Below are positions 1 to 23,800 of a DNA stretch of 31,480 nt, piece after piece. The notes beneath the pieces were generated by a model. It was given only the letters and a program-made list of their open reading frames with translations. It was not told where the DNA came from and did not search any database. Positions within the stretch are counted from its first letter, which is position 1; each line of letters starts with the position of its first letter. A program made the position numbers and the translations under genes. Source of the DNA: a virus. The DNA is taken from IMG/VR virus record IMGVR_UViG_3300028601_000785. One strand, written 5' to 3'.

Positions 1-1
1 A

Positions 2-283
2 TCTATCAGTAACAGTTGTCCCCAATCCCGGAGTCAGGTCTGTATTGCGAGTATAAAGATACTTCACAATCTGATTTCTGCAAGCGTCTGTGATTTCTTC
101 TGCGGACTCCTCACAGATGTGAAGGTAAGACACTGCTTTTTTATCCTTGTTGAGCCACTCTATTCTGTGGGTTGGTATTGTGTCTTTCAGGATGTTATAC
201 CCGGTTTCTGTGAATTTGATTACACATTCATAGTTCAAACCCTTCTCAAAATATTCAGCTTTTACAATTGTTGTGTTCTGCAT
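2..283 (-). CDS. Hypothetical protein, runs off the left edge (MQNTTIVKAEYFEKGLNYECVIKF...)
   Basis: Hand translation from the ATG at 283 gives 94 open codons to the window edge. It is divergent from ORF 500 across an AT-rich intergenic region and is not in the ORF track because it is truncated. Confidence 0.6.
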   Translation of the reverse strand, partial: MQNTTIVKAEYFEKGLNYECVIKFTETGYNILKDTIPTHRIEWLNKDKKAVSYLHICEESAEEITDACRNQIVKYLYTRNTDLTPGLGTTVTDR

Positions 284-441
284 CTTCTCAGCCTCTATTA
301 TGCTTCTCCATATACTACAATGGCACTAATGATATTTATAGTTTACTATGTTCGTAAGAGTTAGTAAAAATGGTTAATAATTTAATTTTAGAATCGTTGT
401 AAAATATTATTCAAATAATAAAACAGACACTTAATAATATA

Positions 442-449
442 TTTATATA
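442..449 (+). promoter_or_regulatory. Archaeal TATA box (TTTATATA) upstream of ORF 500
   Basis: Consensus TATA box about 50 nt before the ATG at 500, in AT-rich intergenic DNA. Confidence 0.55.
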
Positions 450-499
450 CATGTGTATCTATATTATATTACAGATATACTACTAAAACGGGGCAGACC

Positions 500-1747
500 A
501 TGACAAAAACAATAACCGTCAGCTCCTCAGTTGACGATTCAAAAAAACTGCAAAAACTCATAGACAACACGGGAAACACTCCAACCGAATACATTTTTTC
601 AAAGGATAACGACATTGAGATCATCTCACCGATTCGTTTTTATGGCAATCTCATAGTGAATGGGGGCGGGGCCGTTTTCCATCTCACAGACAAAGCCCCT
701 GAGTCTCTTTTTCCCTCCATGACGCCCATCCTCGGAGCAAAGTCCAACGGTGGATCTGGATATGAATTCTCAGGACTCGTTTTTGATGGGAATTCAGATC
801 ACCAAACGGTCCCGCTTGGGAAGGGATTTCATAACCTCATTGGCCTCAGTGGAGCCTCTGATATCAAGATACATGACATCCACCTGCACGACAGCGCCGG
901 AGACATGGCCCGTTTGGCAAATGTAAAGAAGGTACGGTACAATAAAAATAAAGTAATCCGGTGCGGTCACGATGGCCTCTATGTTGATGGGGGATACGAT
1001 GTTGAAGCAGATGATAATTACACTGAAATTCGGACAAACAGTGCAGTAAGATTAAGGCATGTGAAAGGTGGTAAGGTCCGGCGAAACGTAGTCAAAAATA
1101 AAGTAGGTGGGGCTGCATCGTGCCCAGGATTCCAGTTTGAGACATCATTGGAAAATAGGTATTCCTCTGATATTCTGGTAGAAGATAACGAGGTATCGGA
1201 TACGTGGGGACCTGGGGCATGGGTGATTTGTAGGGCAAATCCAAACAAAGGAGCTGCAACCGGGATTACATTCAGAGGCAACACGTTCACAAATTGCGGG
1301 AACATGGACAGCTCATATCATCATATTCCCGGCGTGGGTGGACTTGTTTTCGACTGCTGGGATAAGATCGTAGTCGAAAACAACACTTTCAAAGACTGCA
1401 AAGGGTATGGGGTCCTGTTTGGGGATTATGTGAACGCGGGAGACGTGGGAGCCAACCTTTCAGCCACAATCAGAAATAATAAGTTCATTGGCACTAAGAA
1501 AAGCAATACGGTGGGCACTGCGTCAGGTACTGCTATTGCTAATCTGAAATCAGAAAGATATACGTCTGTAGTTGCTCGGGAGAATTCCTATTCTGGGAAT
1601 GTCAGGGACCTCTACAACGTCACTGAAACGCCAGCCGCTCCCACCGAGAATCCTGCTTTTTTGAAAGTGACTTGCCTTGAATCTCAGATTAAGGCAATAA
1701 AAAACATAATTGCAAATAGAACAATTCTAAGGAAGTTGGAAAAATGA
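500..1747 (+). CDS. Right-handed parallel beta-helix protein, disaggregatase-related (putative methanochondroitin depolymerase)
   Basis: Repeated beta-helix coils. Motifs LGKGFHN, CGHDGLY, RTNSAVR, PGFQFE and TWGPGAW resemble Methanosarcina disaggregatase-associated domains as I recall them (Pfam PF08480-like). No signal peptide. Confidence 0.75.
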   Translation: MTKTITVSSSVDDSKKLQKLIDNTGNTPTEYIFSKDNDIEIISPIRFYGNLIVNGGGAVFHLTDKAPESLFPSMTPILGAKSNGGSGYEFSGLVFDGNSDHQTVPLGKGFHNLIGLSGASDIKIHDIHLHDSAGDMARLANVKKVRYNKNKVIRCGHDGLYVDGGYDVEADDNYTEIRTNSAVRLRHVKGGKVRRNVVKNKVGGAASCPGFQFETSLENRYSSDILVEDNEVSDTWGPGAWVICRANPNKGAATGITFRGNTFTNCGNMDSSYHHIPGVGGLVFDCWDKIVVENNTFKDCKGYGVLFGDYVNAGDVGANLSATIRNNKFIGTKKSNTVGTASGTAIANLKSERYTSVVARENSYSGNVRDLYNVTETPAAPTENPAFLKVTCLESQIKAIKNIIANRTILRKLEK

Positions 1748-2307
1748 CCACATACACGGACAGAGCTTCCCCCATATATACTACATTATACACTGACTGT
1801 AAAGATACAGGCTGCCTGCAACGAAAATTCACAATTCATGGTCAACCCGGCAAACAGATACGAATTGATTCAGTAGGCTGTTCTCTGGCAACCACCCGCG
1901 CGGGAGCCTCTGCTATTGCCTGGGTCATGGCTGTAGTTGATGGGGTGGAAACTACATTGGGATCGTGGGAAGAGACATCAAAGGATTATAAACAGAAAAT
2001 AAATAAACCCGCATTTTTGGCAGATTCCGGGAAAGATGTTATAGTACGGTTTCATCTAAAAACGTCTACCGTGGGAGCAAAAGCGAAAATCAAGCTCTGC
2101 TCTTATACGTATTCCTTTGTAGATTCCGAACCCTCTGTTCCTCCGGTGGTCGATGTTCCCCCGGTTGTCGAGACTCCCCCTGAGGATTGGCCTGCCTCTC
2201 TCCTGATCATGTGCAGCTCTCAGGCTGATGCAGAGGCCCTTATTCCGGAAGTCAAAAAAGTCATCGGAGAAAATGAAATCAGTATATGGACCAAGGGTGG
2301 GAAATAG
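1744..2307 (+). CDS. Hypothetical protein: beta-rich N-domain, Pro/Val linker, short C-terminal module; ends in TAG in frame with the next gene
   Basis: ATGA overlap with ORF 500; linker PSVPPVVDVPPVVETPP; stop is TAG at 2305-2307. Confidence 0.75.
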   Translation: MTTYTDRASPIYTTLYTDCKDTGCLQRKFTIHGQPGKQIRIDSVGCSLATTRAGASAIAWVMAVVDGVETTLGSWEETSKDYKQKINKPAFLADSGKDVIVRFHLKTSTVGAKAKIKLCSYTYSFVDSEPSVPPVVDVPPVVETPPEDWPASLLIMCSSQADAEALIPEVKKVIGENEISIWTKGGK

Positions 2308-2310
2308 ACC

Positions 2311-2347
2311 TGTCCTGAGAATGTTTTGCTAGTCAAACATTCTGACA
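2311..2347 (+). other. Stem-loop starting 4 nt after the amber codon
   Basis: TGTC[CTG]AGAATGTTT[T]G-CTAGT-CAAACATTCTGACA: 14 bp with two bulges and a 5-nt loop. It sequesters the TTG at 2326. Confidence 0.6.
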
Positions 2348-3156
2348 AAAACCATATCCAAATCAATGCCGCCCTGAAACTCGCCTCCTCCACTCCTGGG
2401 ACAATTGTAAGGCTCTCAGAACCTCGCATTTATGAAATTTCTGATAGCCTACTGTTCTATGCCGAATCTATCTTAGAGGGCGTTGATGGGGCTGTGATTA
2501 AGCTCGCTGGCGGCCTGCCTGTATGGGGTGGAAGTGATAGCAGTGTCTCAAAAAAGAAAGCTATGTTCATGATAAAGGGCAGTTCTGCAAGCAATATTAC
2601 AATCAGAAATTTAATTGTCGATGGCAGCCAGAGCGATTATTATCCTACAGTCAAGCTCGGTGCTTCCTGTTATAACATGGCAACCCTTGTAAATTGTGAT
2701 GGATTGACTATCCAGAATGTAACATTCAGGAATGGGTGTAATGATGCCATGCTTATCTCGCAATCCAAGAACATAATGATAGATAAAGTAACCGTGAACA
2801 AATGCGGGCATGACGGTGTATATGCCTATCATGTGGGTGGTATCACGGTTAAAGACTCAAATTTTATTAACCGGACTAATTCGTCCGTTCGTTTCGATTC
2901 CGTAACAGACGGGGCTATGCTGGACTGCAACTGTTCAACTGCCGGAGGGGGGTTCTGCGGGCTGGAATTGCAGGGTGATCTCAAGAATATTATTGCTAGA
3001 GGAAACCACATGAAAGGGCTGCCTTATCCTGGGATTGTGTCTCTTGATGCTAAAATGACTAATGTTGTGATTGAGGGGAATATAATTGAAAAGTGTAAGT
3101 CTCCGGGGATTTCTGCGGCGGGGGCTGTGATTCGAAATAATACGATTACATATTGA
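2326..3156 (+). CDS. Second disaggregatase-related beta-helix protein (possibly the C-terminal part of an amber-readthrough fusion 1744-3156)
   Basis: Motifs HIQINAAL, CGHDGVY and RTNSSVRF; paralog of ORF 500; only a TTG start with no clear RBS. Confidence 0.75.
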   Translation: MLVKHSDKNHIQINAALKLASSTPGTIVRLSEPRIYEISDSLLFYAESILEGVDGAVIKLAGGLPVWGGSDSSVSKKKAMFMIKGSSASNITIRNLIVDGSQSDYYPTVKLGASCYNMATLVNCDGLTIQNVTFRNGCNDAMLISQSKNIMIDKVTVNKCGHDGVYAYHVGGITVKDSNFINRTNSSVRFDSVTDGAMLDCNCSTAGGGFCGLELQGDLKNIIARGNHMKGLPYPGIVSLDAKMTNVVIEGNIIEKCKSPGISAAGAVIRNNTITY

Positions 3157-3238
3157 GACTCGCTGATGACATAATTAAGAATACTTTTCGATAACACACC
3201 CCACTTTCCTATTATTTGTCTCGCTATAATATACATTA

Positions 3239-3505
3239 ATGATATATATTAGAGTAAACATATTATGTAATAATATAATGTTGCAAAGATTGCCTATCAT
3301 GATATTACTACATAGACGAGGAGTGTTGAAAACGGAATTTGAAAAATGTAATCCTCTTTTCCTACTTTCGATAGCTGGGTTGATTACAATTGCGGTATCC
3401 CTCATTTTGACTCGCCAAGATGGGTTTTTATTAAAATGTATTATTGCGATCCTGGGAGGCACAGCCGGTTATTTAGCTCCAAGTAATCTATTTTCCAGAA
3501 AGTGA
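3239..3505 (+). CDS. Small two-TM membrane protein (holin-like); real start probably 3299-3326
   Basis: Two hydrophobic segments (FLLSIAGLITIAVSLIL; FLLKCIIAILGGTAGYLA) and a basic C-terminus. Confidence 0.55.
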   Translation: MIYIRVNILCNNIMLQRLPIMILLHRRGVLKTEFEKCNPLFLLSIAGLITIAVSLILTRQDGFLLKCIIAILGGTAGYLAPSNLFSRK

Positions 3506-3513
3506 GGTGCTAA

Positions 3514-3720
3514 ATGTGTGAAAATTGTTTCTTGACAATCGAACAAAAAAATAGACAACATCAGGATATGCAGAGAATTAGAGAACGCGAAGCCGCGCAC
3601 ATATGTTCAAATTGTTCAAACCACGAGGAACCAGATGATTTTTCAGATTGTCTTTGTGTGTGCAGTCGGGATGGATTAGAAAAGGGGCGAAATTCAAGTT
3701 GTAAAAAATGGAGTGAATAA
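3514..3720 (+). CDS. Small Cys-rich (putative Zn-binding) protein
   Basis: CxxC, CxxCxxH and CxCxC motifs; RBS GAGGTG upstream. Confidence 0.65.
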   Translation: MCENCFLTIEQKNRQHQDMQRIREREAAHICSNCSNHEEPDDFSDCLCVCSRDGLEKGRNSSCKKWSE

Positions 3721-3722
3721 AA

Positions 3723-4028
3723 ATGGTAGACATTGTATCTTTTTTTAGCGGGGCACTCGGAGGAATAATCACTTTCGGGACTGTGATGTATGGATATGCA
3801 CGTATGCAGGGTTTTAGGCTTCTACCAGAGGATCTCGGGGAAACTGTGGACAAATTACAGGGAGATTATGCAGGACTTCGTGATGAGATCGAGGAGGCAA
3901 TCGGCAACATCTCAATAACCGAGGTTGGGAAAATATTTATGAAAGCGCAGGAACTCGGAAAGGACGGGTTTACCGCAGGGGACGCTCAGGAACTCGGGAT
4001 TATGATTATAGACGCCGCAAAGGATTGA
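3723..4028 (+). CDS. Small protein with an N-terminal TM helix and an acidic helical domain
   Basis: IVSFFSGALGGIITFGTVMYGY followed by an acidic helical region; tightly packed in the operon. Confidence 0.7.
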   Translation: MVDIVSFFSGALGGIITFGTVMYGYARMQGFRLLPEDLGETVDKLQGDYAGLRDEIEEAIGNISITEVGKIFMKAQELGKDGFTAGDAQELGIMIIDAAKD

Positions 4029-4034
4029 TTCCTC

Positions 4035-4193
4035 ATGGAAAGGGGAGTCCGGGTCAAAACTTCAAAGGGTGAAGTCGGGATCGTGATTGGGGGCAAGAAA
4101 GATAAGGTGCATATTTGGGTTGAATCTTCTAAAAAATCTAAATATATAAACAAAAACGAGGTCATGAGAGCAGATGTAAAAATAAAGAGGTAA
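4035..4193 (+). CDS. Small basic hypothetical protein (52 aa, MERGVRVKTSKGEVGIVIGG...)
   Basis: Hand translation; fills the gap between ORFs 3723 and 4198. Confidence 0.5.
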   Translation: MERGVRVKTSKGEVGIVIGGKKDKVHIWVESSKKSKYINKNEVMRADVKIKR

Positions 4194-4197
4194 CCAA

Positions 4198-4428
4198 ATG
4201 TCAACTGCCGAGTTCGATATTCAAAATTCTGAAGGGTGGCTTCTAGCTATAGCAGGGGCTGTTGTTGTCATTCTCAAGAAGGGGATTAAACCGTTCTGGC
4301 GGCGGCTGATTGTATCTCAGGTGTTGCTTGGGCATAAGAAGTTAAATGAGTATCGAGCGAAGGAAGAGCTTACAAAAGAAGAATTAGAAGATTATAAAGA
4401 CATCGTTGAGGATGTTTTGAAATTTTAA
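4198..4428 (+). CDS. Small single-TM protein
   Basis: WLLAIAGAVVVIL followed by a basic segment; RBS GAGGT upstream. Confidence 0.65.
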   Translation: MSTAEFDIQNSEGWLLAIAGAVVVILKKGIKPFWRRLIVSQVLLGHKKLNEYRAKEELTKEELEDYKDIVEDVLKF

Positions 4429-4439
4429 ATAAAAATAAA

Positions 4440-4738
4440 TTTTAGGGGAGTGGGGATAGTGAATTTAAAAGGAGAGTGAATAAGTGACAGAATCGGAAGA
4501 GTTAAAATCGCTTAAATATGTAGCAGAAAACGAAAAGGGAAAAGCACAGTCTAAGATATACGAATTGAGGAATAAGATTGCAGAAATTGAAAAGGAAATA
4601 AGCCACTATGAAGGAGAGAAGGAGATGGCTGAGTATATTATATCAAAAATTGACGATGTTGGGAACAAAAATATGAAGGAAAAATGACTTTCTCACCATT
4701 GAGATGAATAAACATAATTTTTAGGGGAGTGGGGATAG
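4440..4738 (+). repeat. Identical 20-bp direct repeat TTTTAGGGGAGTGGGGATAG at 4440-4459 and 4719-4738
   Basis: Exact match; both copies are intergenic and flank ORF 4484. Confidence 0.85.
4484..4687 (+). CDS. Small coiled-coil protein
   Basis: Heptad-like, E/K-rich sequence; GGAG upstream of the GTG start. Confidence 0.6.
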   Translation: MTESEELKSLKYVAENEKGKAQSKIYELRNKIAEIEKEISHYEGEKEMAEYIISKIDDVGNKNMKEK

Positions 4739-4912
4739 GTGAAATTAATGGCTCTTGATGTTTTTCTTCTTACTTTTTGAGCAGTTGTATTTTCTTTTTT
4801 TTATTTAATTAGATAAATGCCGGTTGAGATGTACGCGATATTATAATAATGTTTTATATGTAAATACATATAAATATGATAAAGCTGTATTTGCATATAC
4901 TAAGTTACGAAG

Positions 4913-5197
4913 GTGGCACTACAAATGTACGATATTGCGAACATGCACTTTGATGATGTCTTTGTTATTTACTCCAATAATTTTGAGTATGGAGTATCCT
5001 GCACGGATTATATTTACTTCAAGGAAGAAGATGCACAGCGTGACGCGGACCGGATGAATGAGGCGTCTGCGTTTGGAAAGGATAAGAGATTCATGTATAA
5101 GGTTGCTACACTTACCCAATACGTCGAAGAGTATGGAGAAGGAAAGCACGATGAAGGAGAAGGGGCTACAAGAGCTTCAATGTCGTTTAATGATTGA
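4913..5197 (+). CDS. Hypothetical protein
   Basis: Coding-like composition; follows an AT-rich promoter-like stretch. Confidence 0.6.
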   Translation: MALQMYDIANMHFDDVFVIYSNNFEYGVSCTDYIYFKEEDAQRDADRMNEASAFGKDKRFMYKVATLTQYVEEYGEGKHDEGEGATRASMSFND

Positions 5198-5207
5198 AGG
5201 TGGGTAA

Positions 5208-5723
5208 ATGGTAAAAGTGCAACTCCCAAAAGTAAAGCAAGAAAATCGAATCGAATTAAATGTACTGAAAGCTCAACGTGATGATACTACATTAGATAAC
5301 ACTTTAGAGTATCTTTTGAAACTTCCCCGTCTGTCTATTGCCACAATAGAGAGACTTAATAAAAAACGACAATGGATCATAGATAGACAAGAAACTGATG
5401 ATGAATTAGTAAACCGTTTTTTGGATTATATGGAAGAGACGCCTACGGCTATAATAGGCAGAGCTATTAGAAACGCTATGGAATCCACTATAGAAGAAAT
5501 TGATACGTGGAACGAGTTCTCACCTGAATTCAGAGAATGGTTGAAGAGGTTCCCTGTAATGGAAGGGGAAGATAGGACTGTGCAGTTTTTCCCGAAACCA
5601 GATCCTAGTAAAATAAAACCAAGCAAGAACTTGTGTTGCGGAAGCCCAGAAAAATTTGAAGCATGTTTAAAAGAAGTTATAGAAGACAACAAAGAAGGAT
5701 TAATTCGTTTGGGTAGATCATGA
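5208..5723 (+). CDS. Putative tandem ribbon-helix-helix DNA-binding protein
   Basis: Two repeats resembling archaeal RHH proteins (..RIELNVLK..DTTLDNTLEYLL and ..TIERLNKKR..ETDDELVNRFLD). Confidence 0.5.
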   Translation: MVKVQLPKVKQENRIELNVLKAQRDDTTLDNTLEYLLKLPRLSIATIERLNKKRQWIIDRQETDDELVNRFLDYMEETPTAIIGRAIRNAMESTIEEIDTWNEFSPEFREWLKRFPVMEGEDRTVQFFPKPDPSKIKPSKNLCCGSPEKFEACLKEVIEDNKEGLIRLGRS

Positions 5724-5759
5724 ACATTTTATATATGTATATGAAAGGACGTGGAATAA

Positions 5760-6053
5760 ATGACTGATGAATTAAATGAAATTCTCAAAGAGTGTGCTGC
5801 AATCCGAGGAGTTCACAACCTCCAACATCGAATTCTCCATGAATTTGATTGGTTTGTTGGCTGCATAATATGGCACAAATGGGAAAAGTTCCCTGAAGAT
5901 GAAGATTGCCAAAAATTAAAAAAATATTCAAGCTTTGAGGTAAAGGATTGTAATAATGCTCTTTTGGAATGGGGGAAGCTGTTCTTAGATTACTATCATG
6001 AAAAAGAAATTGAATGGAATCACCAGTTAGATGAAGAAATTAAGAGGGGCTGA
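5760..6053 (+). CDS. Hypothetical protein, paralog of 23800..24090
   Basis: N-terminal DELNEILKEC..RGV..LQHRIL.EF.WFV is shared with ORF 23800. Confidence 0.8.
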   Translation: MTDELNEILKECAAIRGVHNLQHRILHEFDWFVGCIIWHKWEKFPEDEDCQKLKKYSSFEVKDCNNALLEWGKLFLDYYHEKEIEWNHQLDEEIKRG

Positions 6054-6059
6054 AAAGAA

Positions 6060-6248
6060 ATGAAAACGATATCAAAGGAAGAGTTAATAGGCTCAGAAAT
6101 CATCGGCATCGCGTATTATGAAGAAAATAAAGGCGAAATAGGCCCTTATATCATGGTCAAAACCAAAAATGGGAAAATAATTATGATTGGAGCAACAAGC
6201 CGGGAAACTCTTTTTGTAGCTGAAGATGGTGGGAATGATGATAGATGA
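6060..6248 (+). CDS. Small hypothetical protein
   Basis: RBS-like GAGGGG upstream; packed within the operon. Confidence 0.6.
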   Translation: MKTISKEELIGSEIIGIAYYEENKGEIGPYIMVKTKNGKIIMIGATSRETLFVAEDGGNDDR

Positions 6249-6696
6249 AGCATATAAAAAGATGGTGCTTGCCCTGCCGGAATCATTCTTTGAAGGGTGG
6301 AGCTGGCAAGCAGGCGACAGAGCAATCATAATGGATGATAGATATAAAAGAGAAGTCGTTGTGATAAGCTCACGGAATCAAATTGTATCGCGTAAAATGG
6401 TTAACCTGTTGTTCCCTGATGCATTTGATGAAAGTAAAACTGAAGAATATGTTTCTAGGTTAAGACCAATTCCGAGCCAGAAACAACTTCAAGACATCCT
6501 ATTAACTTACGACCATGATAATTGTGGATTCATGTCTGAATTACAAGCCCTGTTTTATTGGTTTAATTATTGGGTGAAGGGGGAAAATCAGATGAATGGT
6601 TTTCGGAATGAGTTCTCAGATTTAGATCAGTTGTGGCTTGCGTTTGCTATGCATACACTGCATGGGGAAACATGGAACGGGGAAAACTGGATTTAA
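6226..6696 (+). CDS. Conserved viral hypothetical protein (IPSQKQLQ...DQLWLAFAM type); start probably 6235/6238
   Basis: The P-x-Q-x-QLQ and QLWLAF-x-M motifs are ones I recall from uncharacterised viral proteins. Confidence 0.65.
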   Translation: MVGMMIDEAYKKMVLALPESFFEGWSWQAGDRAIIMDDRYKREVVVISSRNQIVSRKMVNLLFPDAFDESKTEEYVSRLRPIPSQKQLQDILLTYDHDNCGFMSELQALFYWFNYWVKGENQMNGFRNEFSDLDQLWLAFAMHTLHGETWNGENWI

Positions 6697-6745
6697 CCTT
6701 TTTTTAATCTCCCTAACCTTAGTTTCTTCTCTCTTTTTCTCTTCG
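6697..6745 (+). terminator. Oligo-T/pyrimidine tract, probable archaeal terminator
   Basis: A T7 run and a CT-rich tract directly after the last gene of the operon. Confidence 0.5.
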
Positions 6746-6773
6746 AAAACAGATACTAATCTATCCTAATGAA

Positions 6774-6809
6774 GCCACCGTCTTAAGGAGTGGGGGTTAA
6801 GACGGTGGC
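6774..6809. repeat. Perfect 13-bp inverted repeat GCCACCGTCTTAA-(GGAGTGGGGG)-TTAAGACGGTGGC
   Basis: Read directly from the sequence; intergenic. Confidence 0.85.
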
Positions 6810-7031
6810 ACACTTATTTTCAAAAAAGGTATGGGTTGTAAGGTTGGAGCCAGACAACTCAAGGATTTTGTTAAGGAACGAAACGGTAGTTGTACTCAAC
6901 TACTGTGTATTGAATGCCATATGGTAGAAGAGTATTATTACATATATATATTTCTACAGAGTAAATTATGATTAATATATTTTTAAAGTCTTTTTCGAAA
7001 TCTTAATAATCCATCCCCCGTATTTCTCCGT

Positions 7032-7511
7032 ATGCCCCCCGAAATACGCATTCCCATAACTGCCAAGATCCCCAAGTCCCTCCACGACAAAATACTAGAC
7101 GCAGTAAACTCTCAAAAATACGCAGATAAGACGGATTGTATTACAAAAGCTCTTGAAAAAATACTTGATAATACGGAGCAGTCAGGGCAAGTTGCGGCGG
7201 ATGTATTACAAGAGAGAGAAAATGAAATACAAAAACTTACGGCAGAATTACGCGAAAAATACGATGAAATACGCGAATTACGGGAGGTAATACAGGGATT
7301 ACCGGACCCCGTGGAACTCGCGGAAGTCAGGGCGCGGGATGATGTATTACACTTACTTCTTGAAGAAAAGGACCGGCGAATTGAAGGACTTGAGCGTGAA
7401 GTGGGGAACCTGGATAGGTTTGCTCATTATTTCGCGGAGAAAAAACAGGAAGTGAAACAGATTTCGGAGGGGGGGACTAAAAAGAAGTGGTGGGAATTGT
7501 GGAGGAAGTAG
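7032..7511 (+). CDS. RHH (CopG/Arc-like) DNA-binding protein with a coiled coil and a KKKWWELW tail
   Basis: ITAKIPKSLHDKILDAV..YADKTDCITKALEKIL has RHH pattern; a long heptad region follows. Confidence 0.7.
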   Translation: MPPEIRIPITAKIPKSLHDKILDAVNSQKYADKTDCITKALEKILDNTEQSGQVAADVLQERENEIQKLTAELREKYDEIRELREVIQGLPDPVELAEVRARDDVLHLLLEEKDRRIEGLEREVGNLDRFAHYFAEKKQEVKQISEGGTKKKWWELWRK

Positions 7512-7627
7512 ATTTATTTTTCAGGGGCCTGACGAATTAACAAAAAACAAGAGACCGTAAAACAGATCAGTATGAAAATAATTATTATAATAAAAAATAT
7601 ATATATAAACATGTTATAGTAATATCT

Positions 7628-7679
7628 GCTCACGGCTGAGGATCTGCTTTCTTGGCGGGAGGCATCCTCAGTTGCGAGC
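7628..7679 (+). ncRNA. Long hairpin about 30 nt downstream of a TATA box; candidate small or antisense RNA
   Basis: 16-bp stem 7628-7643/7664-7679 (one mismatch, two GU pairs); TATATATATAAA at 7598-7609; lies between convergent genes. Confidence 0.4.
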
Positions 7680-7681
7680 AC

Positions 7682-8050
7682 TCACTTTTTAAAATACAAT
7701 CTGTCGTGCTCTTGATACATTCCATACTCTACTATAATAGAGTGTATCACGCCAGGGATAGACCCCATAGCAAGCCCGAAACGTTTATTTAAAACTGTTT
7801 TCAGAATTCCCACATCGACCCCGTCTTTGACAGACACTGACGCATCATGTATGATTTTTGATTCGTCTTCGGTCTTTGTCTGCGAGATTGACAATAGTTT
7901 TTCTGAGTCTGATATCTGCACTTCAAAATTTACGAAGTACGTTTCCCCACAACAGGGACATGTTGCTTTGATTAACACTGTATATTCACATCCATAAATA
8001 TATCGGAAATATATATAATTCCTCGATATATTAACAGATGTATGAACCAC
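7682..8050 (-). CDS. Zn-ribbon (CPCC) protein with a C-terminal helical domain
   Basis: CPCCGETY motif; organisation similar to the neighbouring ORF 8071. Confidence 0.6.
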   Translation of the reverse strand: MVHTSVNISRNYIYFRYIYGCEYTVLIKATCPCCGETYFVNFEVQISDSEKLLSISQTKTEDESKIIHDASVSVKDGVDVGILKTVLNKRFGLAMGSIPGVIHSIIVEYGMYQEHDRLYFKK

Positions 8051-8070
8051 GGTGAGTAAAAAAAGGTTTG

Positions 8071-8379
8071 TTATGTTTTGACAGACACATTGGGTGGGGG
8101 GGTAATCAGCAGAGGGAGGATTAAAGTCTCTAACCGTTCCGCATACGTGGGGGAGACCCCGGCATATTTGACAAGAGCACCGGCTACATCACTTGGAATT
8201 ATTTCAATGTGTTTATTCATAATATCTGCAATAAAAAGTACAAACTCGTCTTCGGGCATCGTTTCTGAAATAGAGATGTCTTCAATTACGATCCCGCTTT
8301 CGGATAGATCCGCATCTACACTCAGGGCATAAACGAGATTTGCCCCACAGTTTAAACAAACACCATATGTATACATCAC
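8071..8379 (-). CDS. Zn-ribbon (CLNC) protein
   Basis: CLNCG motif; RBS GGTGA upstream. Confidence 0.65.
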   Translation of the reverse strand: MMYTYGVCLNCGANLVYALSVDADLSESGIVIEDISISETMPEDEFVLFIADIMNKHIEIIPSDVAGALVKYAGVSPTYAERLETLILPLLITPPPNVSVKT

Positions 8380-8512
8380 TAATCACCAATTCCGTGTCTT
8401 AATAAAACCCATCAAGGGTACTATAATATGTGATATATACATTTCGAAAAAATTATTCAAACCGCTCTTTTCTATTTTTTGATGGTGTGCCTGGAAAAAG
8501 GATAGTGTTGTC

Positions 8513-8869
8513 CTAGTGTGCCTCGTCTGGGGATTCCACAGAGAGCAATCCTGGGCGAGCTGTTATTTTTTCATATGCCTGTCGTCCCTCTTGTGTTTGG
8601 AGCATCAGTGCTAAGATATCAAGAGGTGATTCTGGGGCCGTTTGCGGTGCGATTTCTCTGATAGGTGGTTTAGAGGTACGCATGGTTTCTTCTCTTCCTT
8701 CCATACGGCCCTTTAGTTCTGCAAGCGCCACGGCCATAACATTTGACTGCGAATTAAACTGTTTTGATTTTGAGGTCTTTTTGAGCCATTCAAAAAGATA
8801 CAGGGGCAAAGACACTGACGTTTTGACCGCACCCCCCTGTTCTTCGGGTTCTAATTGTTCGTCTGACAT
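8513..8869 (-). CDS. RHH repressor-like protein (start placed at ATG 8869; track ORF extends to 8929)
   Basis: KTSVSLPLYLFEWLKKT..FNSQSNVMAVALAEL is an RHH strand-helix-helix pattern; divergent from ORF 9066. Confidence 0.7.
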   Translation of the reverse strand: MSDEQLEPEEQGGAVKTSVSLPLYLFEWLKKTSKSKQFNSQSNVMAVALAELKGRMEGREETMRTSKPPIREIAPQTAPESPLDILALMLQTQEGRQAYEKITARPGLLSVESPDEAH

Positions 8870-8929
8870 TGGTATATACAAGCCCACGCCCCTATTTATT
8901 TGTTTTTTGATACCGCGATATAGGTACAA

Positions 8930-9065
8930 TATACTGATATATGATGCGTATTGCTACTATTCGCAGCATATTGATGCGATTTGATGCAAAATACTACTAA
9001 ACGGGTAAGTTTATATACCTCCACTACCTATCTAGTAGTAGTTACTAATTGCGGGTAGTAGAAAA
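8930..9065. promoter_or_regulatory. Divergent promoter/operator region
   Basis: TTTATATA at 9010-9017; TGATGC at 8942, 8972 and 8982; CTACTA at 8954 and 8994; inverted TAGTAG copies around 9033-9041 and 9056-9061. Confidence 0.6.
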
Positions 9066-9221
9066 ATGGACAAGGATCTAACACAAAAACAAAATGCAGA
9101 TCTTGAGAGGCTAATCCCAAAAGAAGATTATGGATCTTTCGCGGAGGCAAAAAGAGCCGCCGTGAAGGAAGGGCTCAGAGTATTGCTAAAACGAAATAAA
9201 ATGGAGCCAACCGGAGATTAA
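9066..9221 (+). CDS. Small RHH-like regulator (51 aa, MDKDLTQKQNADLERLIPKEDYGSFAEAKRAAVKEGL...)
   Basis: Hand translation. The L..LI...YGSFAEA.R.AV helix pattern is typical of CopG-like proteins; first gene after the TATA at 9010. Confidence 0.6.
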   Translation: MDKDLTQKQNADLERLIPKEDYGSFAEAKRAAVKEGLRVLLKRNKMEPTGD

Positions 9222-9224
9222 AAC

Positions 9225-9449
9225 ATGAAAATAGAAGTCGCAGCAAAGAACGCAGAACAAGCAATTGATTTTGCAAGAACTGAACTCGGCATAAAGGGCC
9301 AAATCCACTTAAGCAGAGTCGGAGAAGGAAAGGAATGGCACGGCGACCTGTTGCCGGTAAAGGCTGACAGGGGAGAGCCTAGACATGTGTATAGTATTCG
9401 GGTAGAACCTCACGATGGGCTCGTAGATAATGGATTATATGTGCTGTGA
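9225..9449 (+). CDS. Small hypothetical protein
   Basis: RBS GGAGA upstream; 3 nt after the previous stop. Confidence 0.6.
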   Translation: MKIEVAAKNAEQAIDFARTELGIKGQIHLSRVGEGKEWHGDLLPVKADRGEPRHVYSIRVEPHDGLVDNGLYVL

Positions 9450-9478
9450 GGGAGGACAAAAACATATTTTTTCAACGT

Positions 9479-9530
9479 GCTACTGAGAATGGGGACTCAC
9501 ATTCCCTCCGGTGAAAGTCCGCCAGTGGCA
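9479..9530 (+). ncRNA. Miniature tRNA-shaped three-way junction (52 nt)
   Basis: 7-bp closing stem GCTACTG/CAGTGGC plus an unpaired A; hairpin GAATG/CATTC with a GG-containing loop; hairpin CGG-TGAAAGT-CCG with a T-loop-like loop. Confidence 0.35.
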
Positions 9531-9544
9531 AATTCCTAATAAAC

Positions 9545-9568
9545 CCCCCTGATGTCAGACCCAGGGGG
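9545..9568 (+). other. GC-rich hairpin CCCCCTG-N10-CAGGGGG
   Basis: Perfect 7-bp stem between the two tRNA-like elements. Confidence 0.6.
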
Positions 9569-9580
9569 CAACTCCCAATT

Positions 9581-9698
9581 GGCGCGATCAAGACGGTGAC
9601 ACAGCATTTTTCACCCCAACTCGACCTACCACCTCAAAATCCCCCTACAAAAAACGGTTCTTCCTCTGCTGTGAAGGGTTCAAACCCCTTTCGTGCCG
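9581..9698 (+). ncRNA. tRNA-like RNA with tmRNA-TLD topology and a 60-nt C/A-rich loop
   Basis: Acceptor stem GGCGCGA(9581-87)/TCGTGCC(9691-97) plus G; U8; stemless 12-nt D loop containing GG; 7-bp helix CACAGCA(9600-06)/TGCTGTG(9667-73); T arm AAGGG-TTCAAAC-CCCTT(9674-90). Confidence 0.7.
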
Positions 9699-9714
9699 TC
9701 CCCCGTGTGGGGGA
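9699..9714 (+). other. Hairpin TCCCCC-GTGT-GGGGGA directly 3' of the tRNA-like RNA
   Basis: Perfect 6-bp stem. Confidence 0.6.
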
Positions 9715-9730
9715 ATCTGTCATGAAATAC

Positions 9731-10025
9731 AAAACGGAATACTAAAAAACGGATTAAAAAACGCGCAGAAAATAAAATATGTTCAAAATAGCAATCCGGT
9801 ATAATTGAAAAACGGAATTTGAGTACGAACGAAAAACGGATTCCCAGACATAAAAAACGGATGTATTCTTAATTTTCAAAATCGCTCCGGAGAGGTCCGG
9901 GGCACACCTTACTCCTATGGTGTAGTGGTCAACCATTCGGGCCTTTGGAGCCCGAGACTCAGGTTCGAATCCTGATAGGAGTTTTTGCCCATGCCGGAAA
10001 TAAACAATGGGCTTGTAAAAACGGA
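9731..10025 (+). repeat. Six copies of AAAACGGA (9731, 9746, 9809, 9833, 9854, 10018)
   Basis: Counted by eye; all in the same orientation, irregularly spaced, flanking tRNA-Gln. Confidence 0.8.
9911..9983 (+). tRNA. tRNA-Gln(UUG), archaeal type, no intron, CCA not encoded
   Basis: Acceptor ACTCCTA/TAGGAGT (A1-U72); anticodon arm CGGGC-CTTTGGA-GCCCG with TTG at 9945-47; T arm TCAGG-TTCGAAT-CCTGA; followed by a T run. Confidence 0.93.
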
Positions 10026-10053
10026 TTTTTATATTAATGGGAGTTGAATTTTA

Positions 10054-10431
10054 ATGAATATTGAAAAGAGTTTAACAGAGTTTCCAGATGCGCCTGTGAA
10101 AACCTATGCAATTGAAAAGGATATCATAGCCGTTATTGAAAAGAGATTAATGCAGTTTGACGACCATGTAGAAGACCTTGAAGCCAGAAAAAGAAGAATT
10201 GAAAACGCTCTGAGAATGGATGTAGAAATACGGGCTGAAGATAAGGCTTCTGGGCTCACAAACGAGAAAAAGCGACAGATTGCCTATGAAGAACTTGCAG
10301 ATTGCAATGACGAGCTTCAGGGGCTTATTGTAGAGATCCGAGACACCCGGAGAGAACAGAAGAAGCTCAGGATAGAACTCGGGAATGAGCAGAGAGCTTA
10401 TGCTCTGAAAGTTGCAGGGGTGGGACTATGA
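10054..10431 (+). CDS. Coiled-coil hypothetical protein
   Basis: Long E/K/R-rich heptads; ATGA overlap with the next gene. Confidence 0.75.
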   Translation: MNIEKSLTEFPDAPVKTYAIEKDIIAVIEKRLMQFDDHVEDLEARKRRIENALRMDVEIRAEDKASGLTNEKKRQIAYEELADCNDELQGLIVEIRDTRREQKKLRIELGNEQRAYALKVAGVGL

Positions 10432-11849
10432 GTAAACGTGACCCTCTCGCAGACCTCTCAAGACTCTATCCTCAGCTTAAAATTAATGCTTCCAAGTTGT
10501 CAGGGGTGTTTCCCTTGCCAGAAACTGACTTAGAAATTAAGGTTGAAACCACAAAGGACCCGAAAACATGGAAGGCCTTTGATAAGAAAAGCGGGAGTAT
10601 GCTGACAGTTGAAGATGTCCACGGGGCTGCAAAACTCGAACTTGCCAAGTTTATTTGTGATTATACGGAAATTGTAATTCCAGAACTCAAAAAAGATCCT
10701 CTTGATAACTTGAAAGCTGGGGGATTTGAGATTGCAGGAGAGGCACAGGAAAGCCCGGTTGAAGTTCCTGCGGTGGAAGTCCCTAAAGAAGAGGAGATCG
10801 TTGAACCTGGGAAGGTAGACGAAGCCGAGATAAAGGCCAGAGAAGAACGGGAAGAAAATGAGAGGAAACTGGCCGAAGCAGAAGAACGAAAAATAATTGA
10901 GATGGAGAGACGGGAAAAGGTTAAAGAGATGCCCGAACCTCAGAAAATAAATGAATGGAAACAGGGTGGATACGTTGGGAAAATCCACGAAATCGGTTTT
11001 GAAGAAGTTGGACCTGTGCGACCTAACCCAGTAGAGAGACCAAGGCGGACTATTCGTGGGCTCACCCCCAGGCTTGCCGAGTGTGGGAAAATAAAGATCG
11101 GTAGAAAAGGCGAAATGAAAACATCCGCGAGGGGGAACCAGTTCAGACCTCCTGAGAAGATAGACCATTTCCTTATCACAACAATGGATAAAGTGAATGA
11201 TGACTTCGCGCCGGATACTTACATAATGAAACAATTAGGGGAAAACTGCCGTGAAATCCCTGTGAGACTTCCTTACGATGACCCGTCCTTGAACTTCCCT
11301 ACATCATATGCTTATTATGATAGTGCAGCGTGCAAGTGCCGAGGAGATGGGTTCATTGCTCTGAACTCAGAAGGTGCATCTATCGAATGTAACCCAGAAA
11401 CGTGCCCCAATATAAAAGATAAAAAATGTAAACCGAATGGGGTTTTGTCTCTCATTCTTGATGATGCTCCGAGGGTTGGCGGGGTATATAAATTCAGGAC
11501 AACCGGATGGAATTCTATCAATAATATATTCTCATCAATGGAATTCATCAGAGGCCTTACAAACGGACTTCTTGCAGGGCTGCCCCTTATGCTTACCCTG
11601 ACCCCAAAACACACTGTTATTCCAGGCACAAAGACCAGCACAACGATTTACATGGTCAATTTGGAGTACCGGGGATCTTTACAGGATATGGTCAATGCTA
11701 TTCAGCAAACCATGAATACCAGAGCTTTGATGCAGTATTCCGTAAGGGATTTTGAGAAACTGGCTGAGGAATCACTCTCATTACCTGAAGCACCGGAAGA
11801 ATGTAAAGCAATTGTAGAAGAGTTTTATCCAGAGACGGTGAGAGCATGA
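10428..11849 (+). CDS. Gp3-like recombination directionality factor domain (PF18897-like) with a long acidic N-terminal extension
   Basis: C-terminal half GKIKIG...P.K.DHF...EIPV.L...C.GDG...C...CP...CK..G.L...GG.Y.FRT.GWNS matches my recollection of the phiC31/phiBT1 gp3-like family. Confidence 0.65.
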   Translation: MSKRDPLADLSRLYPQLKINASKLSGVFPLPETDLEIKVETTKDPKTWKAFDKKSGSMLTVEDVHGAAKLELAKFICDYTEIVIPELKKDPLDNLKAGGFEIAGEAQESPVEVPAVEVPKEEEIVEPGKVDEAEIKAREEREENERKLAEAEERKIIEMERREKVKEMPEPQKINEWKQGGYVGKIHEIGFEEVGPVRPNPVERPRRTIRGLTPRLAECGKIKIGRKGEMKTSARGNQFRPPEKIDHFLITTMDKVNDDFAPDTYIMKQLGENCREIPVRLPYDDPSLNFPTSYAYYDSAACKCRGDGFIALNSEGASIECNPETCPNIKDKKCKPNGVLSLILDDAPRVGGVYKFRTTGWNSINNIFSSMEFIRGLTNGLLAGLPLMLTLTPKHTVIPGTKTSTTIYMVNLEYRGSLQDMVNAIQQTMNTRALMQYSVRDFEKLAEESLSLPEAPEECKAIVEEFYPETVRA

Positions 11850-11944
11850 CCCCTGATCAGATCACCATCTCTCTGGTTATCCTTTTTTGGAGTCTCGTAG
11901 GATTAGTATACCTCACCAGAAAACCAAAGCAGGTGAGAAGATGA
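11846..11944 (+). CDS. 32-aa single-TM peptide (MTPDQITISLVILFWSLVGLVYLTRKPKQVRR)
   Basis: Hand translation; ATGA overlap with the RDF-like gene; hydrophobic helix plus basic tail. Confidence 0.5.
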   Translation: MTPDQITISLVILFWSLVGLVYLTRKPKQVRR

Positions 11945-11998
11945 GTGGAACCCTGAAAAGATTGCTCAGATCCGGGCAGGATTCAACTCATACCGTTA

Positions 11999-12388
11999 TT
12001 GCGCCTTCTACTAATTCAAGTTATTGTGTGGGGGTGTTTTAATTTGCTTGAAATGACTGAAGTGCAAGATGGGTTGTTATCATCTCCCAAAAAAGAAATT
12101 ATGAAAGCCCGCTGCCCGGAATTATTCCCCGAGCAAATACAGGAATATTTCAATGATAAAAATAAAATTCGGTTGAATAAAATCGAAATTGGAATTGAAA
12201 GAGTTATAGTTAAAGATGAAGATAAGAAAGCCGTGTTCGATGCTGATTTTTTTACATATTTGAAGACGTTGGGGAAAATTGAGTATTATTTATCAAATGT
12301 GAGATTGCCGTGTGATGAAGGGGATTATTATCCACTGCTTGCGAAATATAAGTATGGGTGGGTAATAATCAGCCCACTGGAGGCGTAA
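11999..12388 (+). CDS. Hypothetical protein (start probably at MTEVQD)
   Basis: Coding-like composition in a co-directional cluster. Confidence 0.6.
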   Translation: MRLLLIQVIVWGCFNLLEMTEVQDGLLSSPKKEIMKARCPELFPEQIQEYFNDKNKIRLNKIEIGIERVIVKDEDKKAVFDADFFTYLKTLGKIEYYLSNVRLPCDEGDYYPLLAKYKYGWVIISPLEA

Positions 12389-12773: not shown

Positions 12774-13019
12774 ATGCCAGCGTATACTGAAAATCCCCCT
12801 GAAGAATCATTTGATTATCTCCAGAAGGTAGCTGAAGAACACAAATGTTTACTGTCATATAATAAGAACCTGCCGAAGATCCTGCGAATGAACGAGAAGG
12901 GCGAGAACGGGGTTTTAGCTTGTCTTTGTAAGATTAATACTCAGTGCCCTTGTAATGAGCTTGATGAGGATCTGAAGACTGAGGGGAAGTGTTATTGTGG
13001 GATATTTTGGGGGCTCTGA
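12774..13019 (+). CDS. Ferredoxin-thioredoxin reductase catalytic-subunit-like protein (4Fe-4S/disulfide)
   Basis: CLC-x5-CPC-x12-CYC-GIF corresponds to the three CxC motifs of FTR-c; RBS GGAGG upstream. Confidence 0.75.
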   Translation: MPAYTENPPEESFDYLQKVAEEHKCLLSYNKNLPKILRMNEKGENGVLACLCKINTQCPCNELDEDLKTEGKCYCGIFWGL

Positions 13020-13021
13020 TA

Positions 13022-13750
13022 ATGTTAACCCCCATTAAATTATTTTCCTCTGATGACATTGATAAGCTCAATGAAGATCTTTGGAGAACCATATACCAAA
13101 AGGGAAACCCCCTGAAATTTGGGAGTATAGAAGAGTCTAAAGATGCAAGAGAGATCTTCTCAGTGGTTCAGCTATACGGCAGGGCCCTTGATAGATTATA
13201 CCGTGGCGAGCTTCCTAAAGGGTGGATGTTTGGGAAAGAAGCTAATAAGGTATATATCGAGATGCTGAAAGATCCAGATAGGGGAGAGCAGCCTTATACT
13301 TATGGAGAGAGACTCCACAATTACAGAGTTTGGAGCGAGATCTCGGAATGGGTATCTTATATTGATCAAATGGACGAATGTAAAATAGAACTAGAAGAGG
13401 CTATAAAATCTGGAATTCAAAATAACAGAATATGTGGGGTCATTTGGAATCCACTAGATATTTTCTTAAAAAACCCCCCTTGTTATAATTGGTTCCAGCT
13501 TAGAACATCAGAAGGAAATAAAGTATCTCTCCGCGTTTTATTCCGTTCACATGATTATGGAAATGCCAACTTTGCTAATTTTGGAGCAATTATCCGAGCG
13601 TTTCAGGACGAAGTTATCCGGCCAGCCGGGGGAATACTCGAAGAGTTAATTTGTGTGTCTACTTCTGCGCATTTGTATAATAATGATTTGGACATGGTTG
13701 AAAATCTCGTTGGGAAAGTGCCAGAATCCATGCGGAGGCTCTTAAAATGA
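13022..13750 (+). CDS. thyA: Thymidylate synthase, archaeal type (track ORF starts at 12989)
   Basis: YTYGERL, WNP, catalytic PPC, FRSHD...N (Asn at the dUMP-specificity position), SAHLY. Confidence 0.85.
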   Translation: MLTPIKLFSSDDIDKLNEDLWRTIYQKGNPLKFGSIEESKDAREIFSVVQLYGRALDRLYRGELPKGWMFGKEANKVYIEMLKDPDRGEQPYTYGERLHNYRVWSEISEWVSYIDQMDECKIELEEAIKSGIQNNRICGVIWNPLDIFLKNPPCYNWFQLRTSEGNKVSLRVLFRSHDYGNANFANFGAIIRAFQDEVIRPAGGILEELICVSTSAHLYNNDLDMVENLVGKVPESMRRLLK

Positions 13751-14271
13751 TTATCGCCGTTGAAGGCCCGGATAAATTCGGTAAAAGTACAATTTGTGCC
13801 CTCCTTTCCAAAAAATTAAACGCCACCCTAATTAAATTCCCAAATGAAAATTTTGAATCCGGAAAGACCCTCCGGGATATCCTAAACAAAAAACTTCCAT
13901 TCGAGCCGATGTCATTTCAGGCTCTCCAGATAGTCAACCGGCTTGAGACCTATGAAACGCTTGATCCTAGAAAAACATACGTCTGTGACCGGGGGAAACT
14001 CTCTGGCATCGTTTATGCGCTTGCTGATGGGCTTCCTGAAGAATGGGTCAGGAAAACTGCGGATTATCTGCCTGATCCTGATGTTACTGTCTTAATCATG
14101 GGCAGACCATACGGGCGGGATTCTGATATTTATTCAGGTGTTGAGTATCAAAAGACGATTCGGGAGCTGTATAGAGTAGAAGGGAAGAACGCAGGCGGGA
14201 AGGTTGTTTATGTCTGCAATCAGGGATCAATTGGGGATGTGTTTGAACGTGTTCTCCGGAGGGTTGTTTAA
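13747..14271 (+). CDS. tmk: Thymidylate (dTMP) kinase
   Basis: P-loop EGPDKFGKST, KFP, CDR..S..VY, PDPD; ATGA overlap with thyA. Confidence 0.85.
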   Translation: MIIAVEGPDKFGKSTICALLSKKLNATLIKFPNENFESGKTLRDILNKKLPFEPMSFQALQIVNRLETYETLDPRKTYVCDRGKLSGIVYALADGLPEEWVRKTADYLPDPDVTVLIMGRPYGRDSDIYSGVEYQKTIRELYRVEGKNAGGKVVYVCNQGSIGDVFERVLRRVV

Positions 14272-23377: not shown

Positions 23378-23800
23378 ATGGATTTCAGTAAAGCACTTGA
23401 AGCCTTGAAAGCAGGCACGAAAGTAAGAAGACACTCTCTTCCGATCAAACATTTTTTTGAAATACTCCCTATACAACAAATGGATCTTTCTTTTAAGCGC
23501 GTTCTCCTAATCACTACAATAACAGATACTGGAAATTTCTCAGAAAATTATACATTAACTGATGATGATATATTTTCTGATGATTGGAAAATAATAGAAG
23601 ACACACCAGAACAACCCCTCACTCCAAAAACACACGGTATCAATTCCTATTCCCTTTGGCTCAACAATAAAATATCCGAATATAACTCAGCAATCCAGAG
23701 TTGCATAGAAGTCAGAGAGTATGACAGGGCTGCGGTATTAGCAAAAGAACGGGATGGATATAATATGTGTTTAAGTGCTTTTGAAAAGATGGTGATATAA
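23378..23800 (+). CDS. DUF2829 / Tad2 (Thoeris anti-defence 2)-like protein with a C-terminal extension
   Basis: MDFSKALEALKAGTKVRR...LTDDDIFSDDWKII matches the family signatures MxFxxALxALKxGxKVxR and DxLxxDWxI. Confidence 0.75.
   Translation: MDFSKALEALKAGTKVRRHSLPIKHFFEILPIQQMDLSFKRVLLITTITDTGNFSENYTLTDDDIFSDDWKIIEDTPEQPLTPKTHGINSYSLWLNNKISEYNSAIQSCIEVREYDRAAVLAKERDGYNMCLSAFEKMVI

Follow-up and report, generated by a model that had tools for sequence, protein, structure and literature searches.

Does an in-frame TAG end a gene, or is it read as a sense codon, when the same frame continues for almost 300 codons behind it? This question is raised by a locus in a 31,480-nucleotide (nt) stretch of viral DNA (IMG/VR virus record IMGVR_UViG_3300028601_000785), which is referred to in its entirety as the window. 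An open reading frame (ORF) begins with ATG 1744 and ends with TAG at positions 2305-2307; the same frame then remains open for 282 more codons up to a TGA at 3154-3156. The TAG is followed by the six codons ACC TGT CCT GAG AAT GTT (2308-2325; residues T, C, P, E, N and V) and then by TTG 2326, the first codon of the β-helix ORF, with all parts lying in one frame on the plus strand, as do all other features of the locus. Termination at the TAG yields a protein of 187 amino acids; if the TAG is read as a residue, a protein of 470 amino acids (P0001) is obtained. The sequence is as described in an initial annotation of the window, which had suggested that the two ORFs are fused by programmed readthrough with pyrrolysine (Pyl). 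We consider it likely that ORF 1744 is translated together with ORF 2326 as a single unit, in which the UAG either terminates translation or takes pyrrolysine. The TAG, which is invariant in five loci, is hence proposed as a codon of dual meaning (stop or pyrrolysine), and the substitution pattern in these loci points to the six following codons as translated rather than intergenic.

Related loci were reached via cluster members and via P0003, a protein of 79% identity. Five loci from independent assemblies were found to contain the TAG: the window itself; L014, a contig of a metagenome-assembled genome (MAG) from NCBI, which is syntenic with the window; L015, a Logan contig; L016, from JGI; and L001 (with L002 and L009), a provirus located in a Methanosarcinales MAG, where it has an integrase and genes of cellular type as neighbors. 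Alignments of DNA and protein placed the TAG at the same position and in the same frame in all five loci, and in each of them it was the sole stop of a frame of about 470 codons. The conserved in-frame TAG expected by the initial annotation was thus present in the four related loci. L015 and L016 are shorter by two codons ahead of the TAG and by one codon behind it; the reading frame is kept because these indels are multiples of three. The residues following the TAG are conserved as x-C-(x)-E-N-V-L, with C, E, N and V of the six codons being invariant across the five loci. The stretch GAGAATGT behind the TAG is also invariant, for which the coding of E, N and V is as good an explanation as a conserved stimulatory context.

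An artefact of sequencing or assembly, or an indel at the T run 2323-2326 which would put ATG 2321 in frame, is the least probable of the alternatives and can practically be dismissed. A run of four T is indeed present, and nothing else was found to favor it; the possibility had already been mentioned in the initial annotation. However, assemblies of different samples from ENA, JGI, NCBI, and Logan contain the same TAG in the same frame. In L014, L015, and L016, other bases break up the T run (ATGTTCTG or ATGTCCTG; TTCTG, TCCTG), and the frame is still kept there, so that the indel explanation fails; furthermore, ATG 2321 of the window opens a frame of only three codons. An identical 187-amino-acid product is encoded on two contigs, which together with the TAG in four related loci of other assemblies argues against an assembly error. 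Contigs from other sequencing runs bridge the junction without gaps, which by itself is no proof that the TAG is kept in those runs.

The pattern of substitutions was analyzed over the five loci by Nei-Gojobori counting of nonsynonymous and synonymous changes (dN/dS). Values of 0.04-0.27 were obtained for the 33 codons after the TAG, 0.07-0.14 for the rest of the β-helix, and 0.08-0.23 for a mini-domain located immediately before the TAG. The excess of synonymous changes after the TAG was significant, with Fisher p-values from 5e-7 to 8e-3. The six codons which would be a mere spacer between two genes showed five synonymous changes, two changes that replace an amino acid, and a deletion of 3 nt that keeps the frame. 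Apparently, the codons after the TAG evolve as coding sequence under purifying selection. A decaying gene, in which a nonsense mutation has split an ancestral fusion and the downstream part has become silent, is therefore very improbable. The existence of contiguous homologs would make the split state a derived one, but 280 downstream codons have remained open at a dN/dS of 0.07-0.14 in lineages whose synonymous divergence ranges from 0.3 to above 1 substitution per site, and neither a second stop nor a frameshift was found in any of the five loci.

The proportion of synonymous differences (pS, uncorrected) was 0.25-0.35 among four of the loci and was near saturation in comparisons with L001; the length of the tree was about 2.3 substitutions per synonymous site. 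The probability that the TAG is retained over this tree was 0.3-0.5 for a codon acting as a stop only, and about 0.002 for a freely replaceable linker codon. The linker residues beside the TAG vary among the loci (K, K, V, A, and V before; T, T, D, D, and T after). As these flanking residues vary and the TAG has never turned into a sense codon, the TAG itself seems to be kept by selection while the downstream part is translated. This preference for TAG over a sense codon suggests that partial termination, or the dependence on pyrrolysine itself, may be useful.

The main rival explanation assumes two genes: UAG 2305 would be an ordinary terminator, and the β-helix would start 18 nt further on at UUG (CUG in relatives) by reinitiation or non-canonical initiation, with the shared frame being an inherited accident. 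We regard this as unlikely, albeit less so than any other alternative. It agrees with the presence of TTG as codon +7 after the TAG in the window and in L001, and with the gene callers, which have split the ORFs in all five records and truncated the enzyme in three. Chance alone should place about one quarter of adjacent gene pairs in the same frame, the retention of TAG as a plain stop has the probability of 0.3-0.5 given above, and the distant relatives are stand-alone genes. However, codon +7 is CTG, a synonymous Leu codon, in three of the five loci (L014, L015, and L016), with no Shine-Dalgarno-like site before it. The ribosome-binding site of TTG 2326 had been described as poor in the initial annotation, and this was corroborated: pairing of the 22 nt located 5' of this codon with the 16S tail amounted to -2.7 kcal/mol, as compared to a median of -7.7 kcal/mol for 35 plus-strand genes and -3.8 kcal/mol for random positions. 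The site ranked third weakest of 35 and is devoid of a Shine-Dalgarno-like sequence. The first canonical start in L014, L015, and L016 is an ATG located 31-32 codons past the TAG, the use of which would remove an N-cap helix ('QIN.AL') with I, N, A, and L positions that are invariant in 37 family members. Homologs with variable frames or with a downstream start of their own would have contradicted the fusion; the frame was identical in the four related loci and no start was conserved. TTG 2326 probably codes for an internal Leu.

Two gene calls in public records may be mentioned here. The β-helix genes annotated in L014 (3158-3913) and L016 (358-1113) begin at the internal ATG and encode 251 amino acids, with the N-cap helix being cut off. 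Both truncations go back to the in-frame TAG and represent a systematic artefact of annotation.

Further evidence on the number of genes came from relatives in which the corresponding protein is uninterrupted. P0052, P0079, P0086, P0093, P0095, and P0099 constitute a β-helix subgroup of 317-327 amino acids which has the C-terminal extension of the window protein, and the N-terminal extension of these relatives aligns with the last approximately 35 residues of ORF 1744. A BLASTP alignment of the 470-amino-acid frame with the stand-alone relatives spans residues 153-470 and thus crosses the position of the TAG; the 40-residue piece containing the mini-domain alone reached Smith-Waterman z-scores of up to 6 against shuffled sequences. 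A β-α-β unit is folded in front of the β-helix in the model of P0052 (predicted template modeling score, pTM, 0.88). The stand-alone genes possess their own ATG after an AT-rich spacer, and this start is located upstream of the mini-domain. Hence, the mini-domain and the β-helix belong to one protein in the relatives, and in the window they are divided by the TAG. A start at the TTG, as assumed for two genes, has no counterpart in the stand-alone relatives, which start 5' of the mini-domain, and it would leave the mini-domain dangling on the upstream protein. Together with the CTG codons, the missing ribosome-binding site, and the coding-type substitutions and in-frame deletion in the six preceding codons, this contiguous layout disfavors two separate genes.

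Proteins of 728-742 amino acids (P0025, P0028, and P0043) were considered as fused versions of ORF 1744, but were rejected because they are cellular proteins with two β-helices. Stand-alone loci encoding the mini-domain and the β-helix (L003 6001-6954, L004, L005, and L013) reside in other mobile elements beside resolvase/integrase and DUF2227 genes, which suggests that the module moves between elements.

The fusion into one translational unit is also indicated by a swap at the N-terminus. L001 resembles the window only from a point about 31 codons ahead of the TAG onward. At the position corresponding to 1744-2190 of the window, which encodes an orphan β-sandwich, L001 (5341-5982) encodes a Disaggr_repeat/CBM96 domain (1.9e-81) instead, and a recombination boundary is located about 31 codons before the TAG. 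As the similarity is limited to the module, two unrelated N-terminal domains apparently became fused in frame to one module consisting of mini-domain, TAG, and β-helix. Readthrough in L001 would produce a carbohydrate-binding module linked to a catalytic domain, which is a usual architecture; two separate genes would yield a carbohydrate-binding module without an enzyme.

Which residue might be inserted at the UAG was addressed with the genome that carries the L001 provirus (G001), in which pylT, pylS, pylB, pylD, and mtmB were sought. PylS was found with 427 bits, above the curated cut-off, and pylT, the gene for tRNA-Pyl (CUA), adjoins pylS. PylB (573 bits) and PylD (400 bits) are encoded on the same contig as pylS, and the mtmB gene contains one in-frame TAG. 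A host without pyl genes would have contradicted the initial annotation; in the genome that carries the related provirus, all five genes sought, including the TAG-bearing mtmB, are present. Pyrrolysine insertion in Methanosarcina requires no sequence context, and a motif of the type of the pyrrolysine insertion sequence (PYLIS) is not needed according to published work. In M. acetivorans, RdmS is produced both as a long and as a short protein owing to a UAG, and the long one is lost without pylBCD (PMC12626013). Charging of tRNA-Pyl and the dwell time of ribosomes at UAG shift with the availability of methylamines (PMC13663744). Considering the host machinery and this published work, the inserted residue is most likely pyrrolysine.

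Readthrough of the UAG by a near-cognate tRNA, or leaky termination, instead of decoding by tRNA-Pyl appears quite improbable. The virus encodes a tRNA-Gln with the anticodon UUG (9911-9983, plus strand), the sole tRNA of the window, and Gln tRNAs are natural misreaders of UAG and UAA in several readthrough systems of eukaryotic viruses. The comparative evidence for translation through the TAG is, moreover, silent on the inserted residue. However, the UUG anticodon suits UAA more than UAG, a tRNA with a CUA anticodon is not encoded in the window, and the host of the related provirus has a pyl cluster with tRNA-Pyl dedicated to the decoding of UAG, for which published Methanosarcina pyrrolysine insertion is free of context. 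A virus-encoded amber suppressor was rejected on the same finding, as tRNA-Gln (UUG) is the only tRNA gene of the window. Additionally, a global reassignment of TAG was rejected since no other long ORF of the window merges with a neighbor when TAG is read as sense.

Stop codon usage was determined for a crude set of 58 non-overlapping ORFs of the window, of which 29 end with TGA, 24 with TAA, and five with TAG. The rarity of TAG that had been claimed initially was thus confirmed, with the count being five instead of four (TAG 362-364 has to be added). Each of the other four TAG stops is followed by a second in-frame stop within 0-19 codons, whereas 282 open codons follow TAG 2305, the longest such run in the window. 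In ORF 119-364, a TAA follows the TAG immediately (362-367), and the TAG stops at 7509, 8513 (minus strand), and 30710 (minus strand) have a back-up stop 3-19 codons away. Back-up stops behind the other TAG codons are the pattern to be expected where termination at UAG is leaky.

A hairpin of 14 bp had been reported in the initial annotation to start just behind the TAG and to bury TTG 2326. Folding and shuffling confirmed a local RNA hairpin over the TTG at 2311-2347 (plus strand); it comprises 13 bp, namely, a perfect 9-bp stem (2318-2326 with 2335-2343) and four outer pairs (2311-2314 with 2344-2347), and it is only moderately unusual, with z-scores against shuffles of -2.4 when a frame of 46 nt is folded and of about -1 for frames of 66 and 101 nt. 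The 9-bp stem is kept in L014 (z -4.2), where C-G replaces U-A in one compensatory change. The hairpin is eroded in L015 (z -0.6) and L016 (z -1.4) and absent in L001 (z +0.7). RNAalifold predicted no consensus pairs for the five loci, 70.5% of the cells pair in the five-sequence alignment as compared to 69.4% in shuffles, and Rfam gave no relevant match over 2200-2500. A conserved, covarying hairpin as anticipated was therefore not found; the structure is lineage-specific and dispensable for the conserved layout. Within the lineage of the window, it may have an influence on decoding.

The two halves of the 470-amino-acid protein differ in what can be predicted about them. Residues 1-127 (1744-2124) form a predicted β-sandwich, with strands throughout in the AlphaFold2 (AF2) model at a predicted local distance difference test (pLDDT) of about 60. 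A signal peptide was not found in this domain, ORF 1744 gave no Pfam or PHROG match, and a search for its homologs returned only its own cluster. The structural neighbors of the domain in the Atlas are β-sandwich domains, which is to be taken as a lead only. A Pro-rich, flexible linker follows at residues 128-149 (2125-2190), as seen from the translation, with pLDDT below 50 at residues 129-151. The short form ends with the β-α-β mini-domain, residues 150-187 (2191-2304), which was recognized by its homology to the N-termini of stand-alone β-helix proteins and in which a helix is modeled at residues 160-174. The TAG itself falls into an interdomain linker of low confidence (residues 187-192).

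Residues 195-470 of the long form (2326-3156) constitute a right-handed β-helix, a predicted glycan-active domain (Pfam PF13229 Beta_helix, 5e-13), which AF2 predicts with confidence from residue 194 onward, at a pLDDT mostly above 85. Foldseek matched it with GH87 glucanases, AlgE4, GH28 polygalacturonases, and phage tailspikes at E-values of 1e-10 to 1e-5; a characterized close relative was not found. Numerous secreted Methanosarcina proteins of 298 amino acids, all equipped with a signal peptide, share 63-69% identity with the domain. In place of the signal peptide of these cellular homologs, the viral versions have N-terminal modules, which would fit a depolymerase that is borne on the particle or released upon lysis and acts against the Methanosarcina matrix; methanochondroitin may be its target. 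The gene located immediately upstream (500-1747, plus strand) encodes another protein of this cassette, with 415 amino acids and a Beta_helix (2e-20) and a Disaggr_assoc domain (1e-13; disaggregatase-related). It is syntenic in L014 and L001, and its TGA shares bases with ATG 1744 (ATGA).

We therefore propose the following mechanism. In a Pyl-decoding Methanosarcina host, ribosomes starting at ATG 1744 would either stop at UAG 2305 or insert pyrrolysine. Termination would give the 187-amino-acid product composed of β-sandwich, Pro-rich linker, and β-α-β mini-domain, either as a by-product or as a partner of the long form. Insertion of pyrrolysine would give the 470-amino-acid protein, to which the β-helix adds a disaggregatase-like domain predicted to cleave polysaccharides. 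As the β-helix has no start of its own, the enzyme would be made only when the UAG is read as sense. Both forms are presumably made and used, the proteins may be borne on the virion, and the ratio of short to long form would then track supply and demand of pyrrolysine in the host. A wider interpretation, which we put forward tentatively and would not yet call probable, is that Methanosarcina viruses have recruited the ambiguous decoding of UAG with pyrrolysine as a readthrough switch between an adaptor alone and an adaptor linked to a depolymerase. The ratio, and hence the load of matrix-degrading enzyme, would follow supply and demand of Pyl-tRNA, that is, the methylamine metabolism of the host.

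Several points weigh against the proposed readthrough with pyrrolysine. The five loci represent about three lineages, all of them from metagenomes or MAGs, and the conserved layout is known from sequence comparison. Conservation of the TAG alone is uninformative, since a plain stop would often be kept over the same tree, and other stop codons are likewise conserved between the TAG loci. As TTG occupies codon +7 in the window and in L001, the sequence would also allow for reinitiation at UUG or CUG. Proteins of the P0052 type suggest that the enzyme can work without a large N-terminal domain, and the short form has no known use. The hairpin, the sole candidate for a cis-acting element, is not conserved. 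Finally, the host of the window virus itself is deduced from its relatives.

Additional occurrences of the TAG module were searched for in several data sets. Among 177 genomes of the host's family, only G001 contained it, and a scan of genome contigs returned the L001 contig again and nothing else. A junction profile compared to 1.84 billion protein representatives matched only P0122 and, weakly, one protein of 149 amino acids. Searches of viral and metagenome contig collections yielded no further TAG locus. An exact 17-mer match in a MAG of a giant virus (L008) was taken as chance.

The window is the end of a 49.9-kb metagenome contig and carries primase-helicase, ThyA-like, Tmk, and Tad2-like genes. 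This position and gene content fit a methanogen virus or an integrative element. A megablast search of window positions 1-12000 against GenBank phages gave no match, and the phage relatives of the window primase are only remote. A 473-amino-acid protein encoded at 10428-11849 (plus strand) matches Gp3-like, recombination directionality factor-like proteins (PF18897, 1e-41). Genes for a thymidylate-synthase-like protein (PF00303, 2e-9) and a thymidylate kinase (PF02223, 7e-17) are located side by side at 12989-14271 (plus strand). At its N-terminus, the protein of 140 amino acids encoded at 23378-23800 (plus strand) contains a domain resembling Tad2 (Thoeris anti-defence 2; PF11195, 3.5e-10), which is unusual for an archaeal virus. 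A third β-helix protein, of 854 amino acids and with a PKD domain, is encoded at 24641-27205 (plus strand), which brings the glycan-active candidates on this element to three.

Cellular genes of Methanosarcina with an ambiguous UAG include those for RdmS and for the tRNA-His guanylyltransferase Thg1. The locus resembles that of RdmS of M. acetivorans in that an in-frame UAG is located between domains of a protein that is not a methyltransferase, no dedicated cis element is present, a short and a long product are expected, and the extension contains a domain common to homologs, which is the criterion for putative Pyl proteins used in that study (PMC12626013). The same holds for the viral locus: the TAG is conserved, the extension is a Pfam Beta_helix domain, and contiguous homologs exist. 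RdmS is encoded by a cellular gene, whereas the gene described here belongs to a virus or provirus and is known from its sequence. Unlike in RdmS, the UAG is kept across diverged lineages and across an exchange of the N-terminal domain, and in the long form, an enzyme would be linked to a part that acts as adaptor or in binding.

Stop-codon readthrough is also established in other viruses: the A1 protein of phage Qβ is made when the UGA of the coat gene is read through, and murine leukaemia virus forms gag-pol by readthrough of a stop codon. Likewise, one start gives two products in these systems, and the extended form carries an additional functional domain. They use near-cognate standard tRNAs, some of them with a stimulatory RNA structure; at the locus described here, in contrast, a dedicated host tRNA for the 22nd amino acid would decode the stop codon, and no conserved RNA structure was found. 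The hairpin of the window and L014 is located a few nt past the UAG, as is the PYLIS element of mtmB, but it is not conserved in L015, L016, and L001 and has neither a consensus fold nor an Rfam match. With the disaggregatase-related proteins of Methanosarcina and with phage tailspikes, the locus shares the PF13229 β-helix, a Disaggr_assoc neighbor, and, in L001, the Disaggr_repeat domain at the N-terminus. The Methanosarcina proteins differ by their signal peptide, in place of which the viral versions carry the mini-domain with or without an N-terminal domain.

Studies of pyrrolysine decoding have dealt almost exclusively with the methylamine methyltransferases of cells and with a few further cellular proteins. 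Among the papers covered by a full-text search, there was no report of a virus gene dependent on pyrrolysine, of a viral protein naturally containing it, or of viral recoding with the 22nd amino acid. If the proposed decoding is true, mobile elements exploit the ambiguity of UAG in Methanosarcina, and the locus would be a compact natural test case for context-free insertion of pyrrolysine and for the effect of the growth substrate on readthrough. It would further illustrate that gene callers systematically split genes interrupted by UAG. Finally, it may provide a lead on how viruses handle the methanochondroitin matrix of aggregated Methanosarcina cells.

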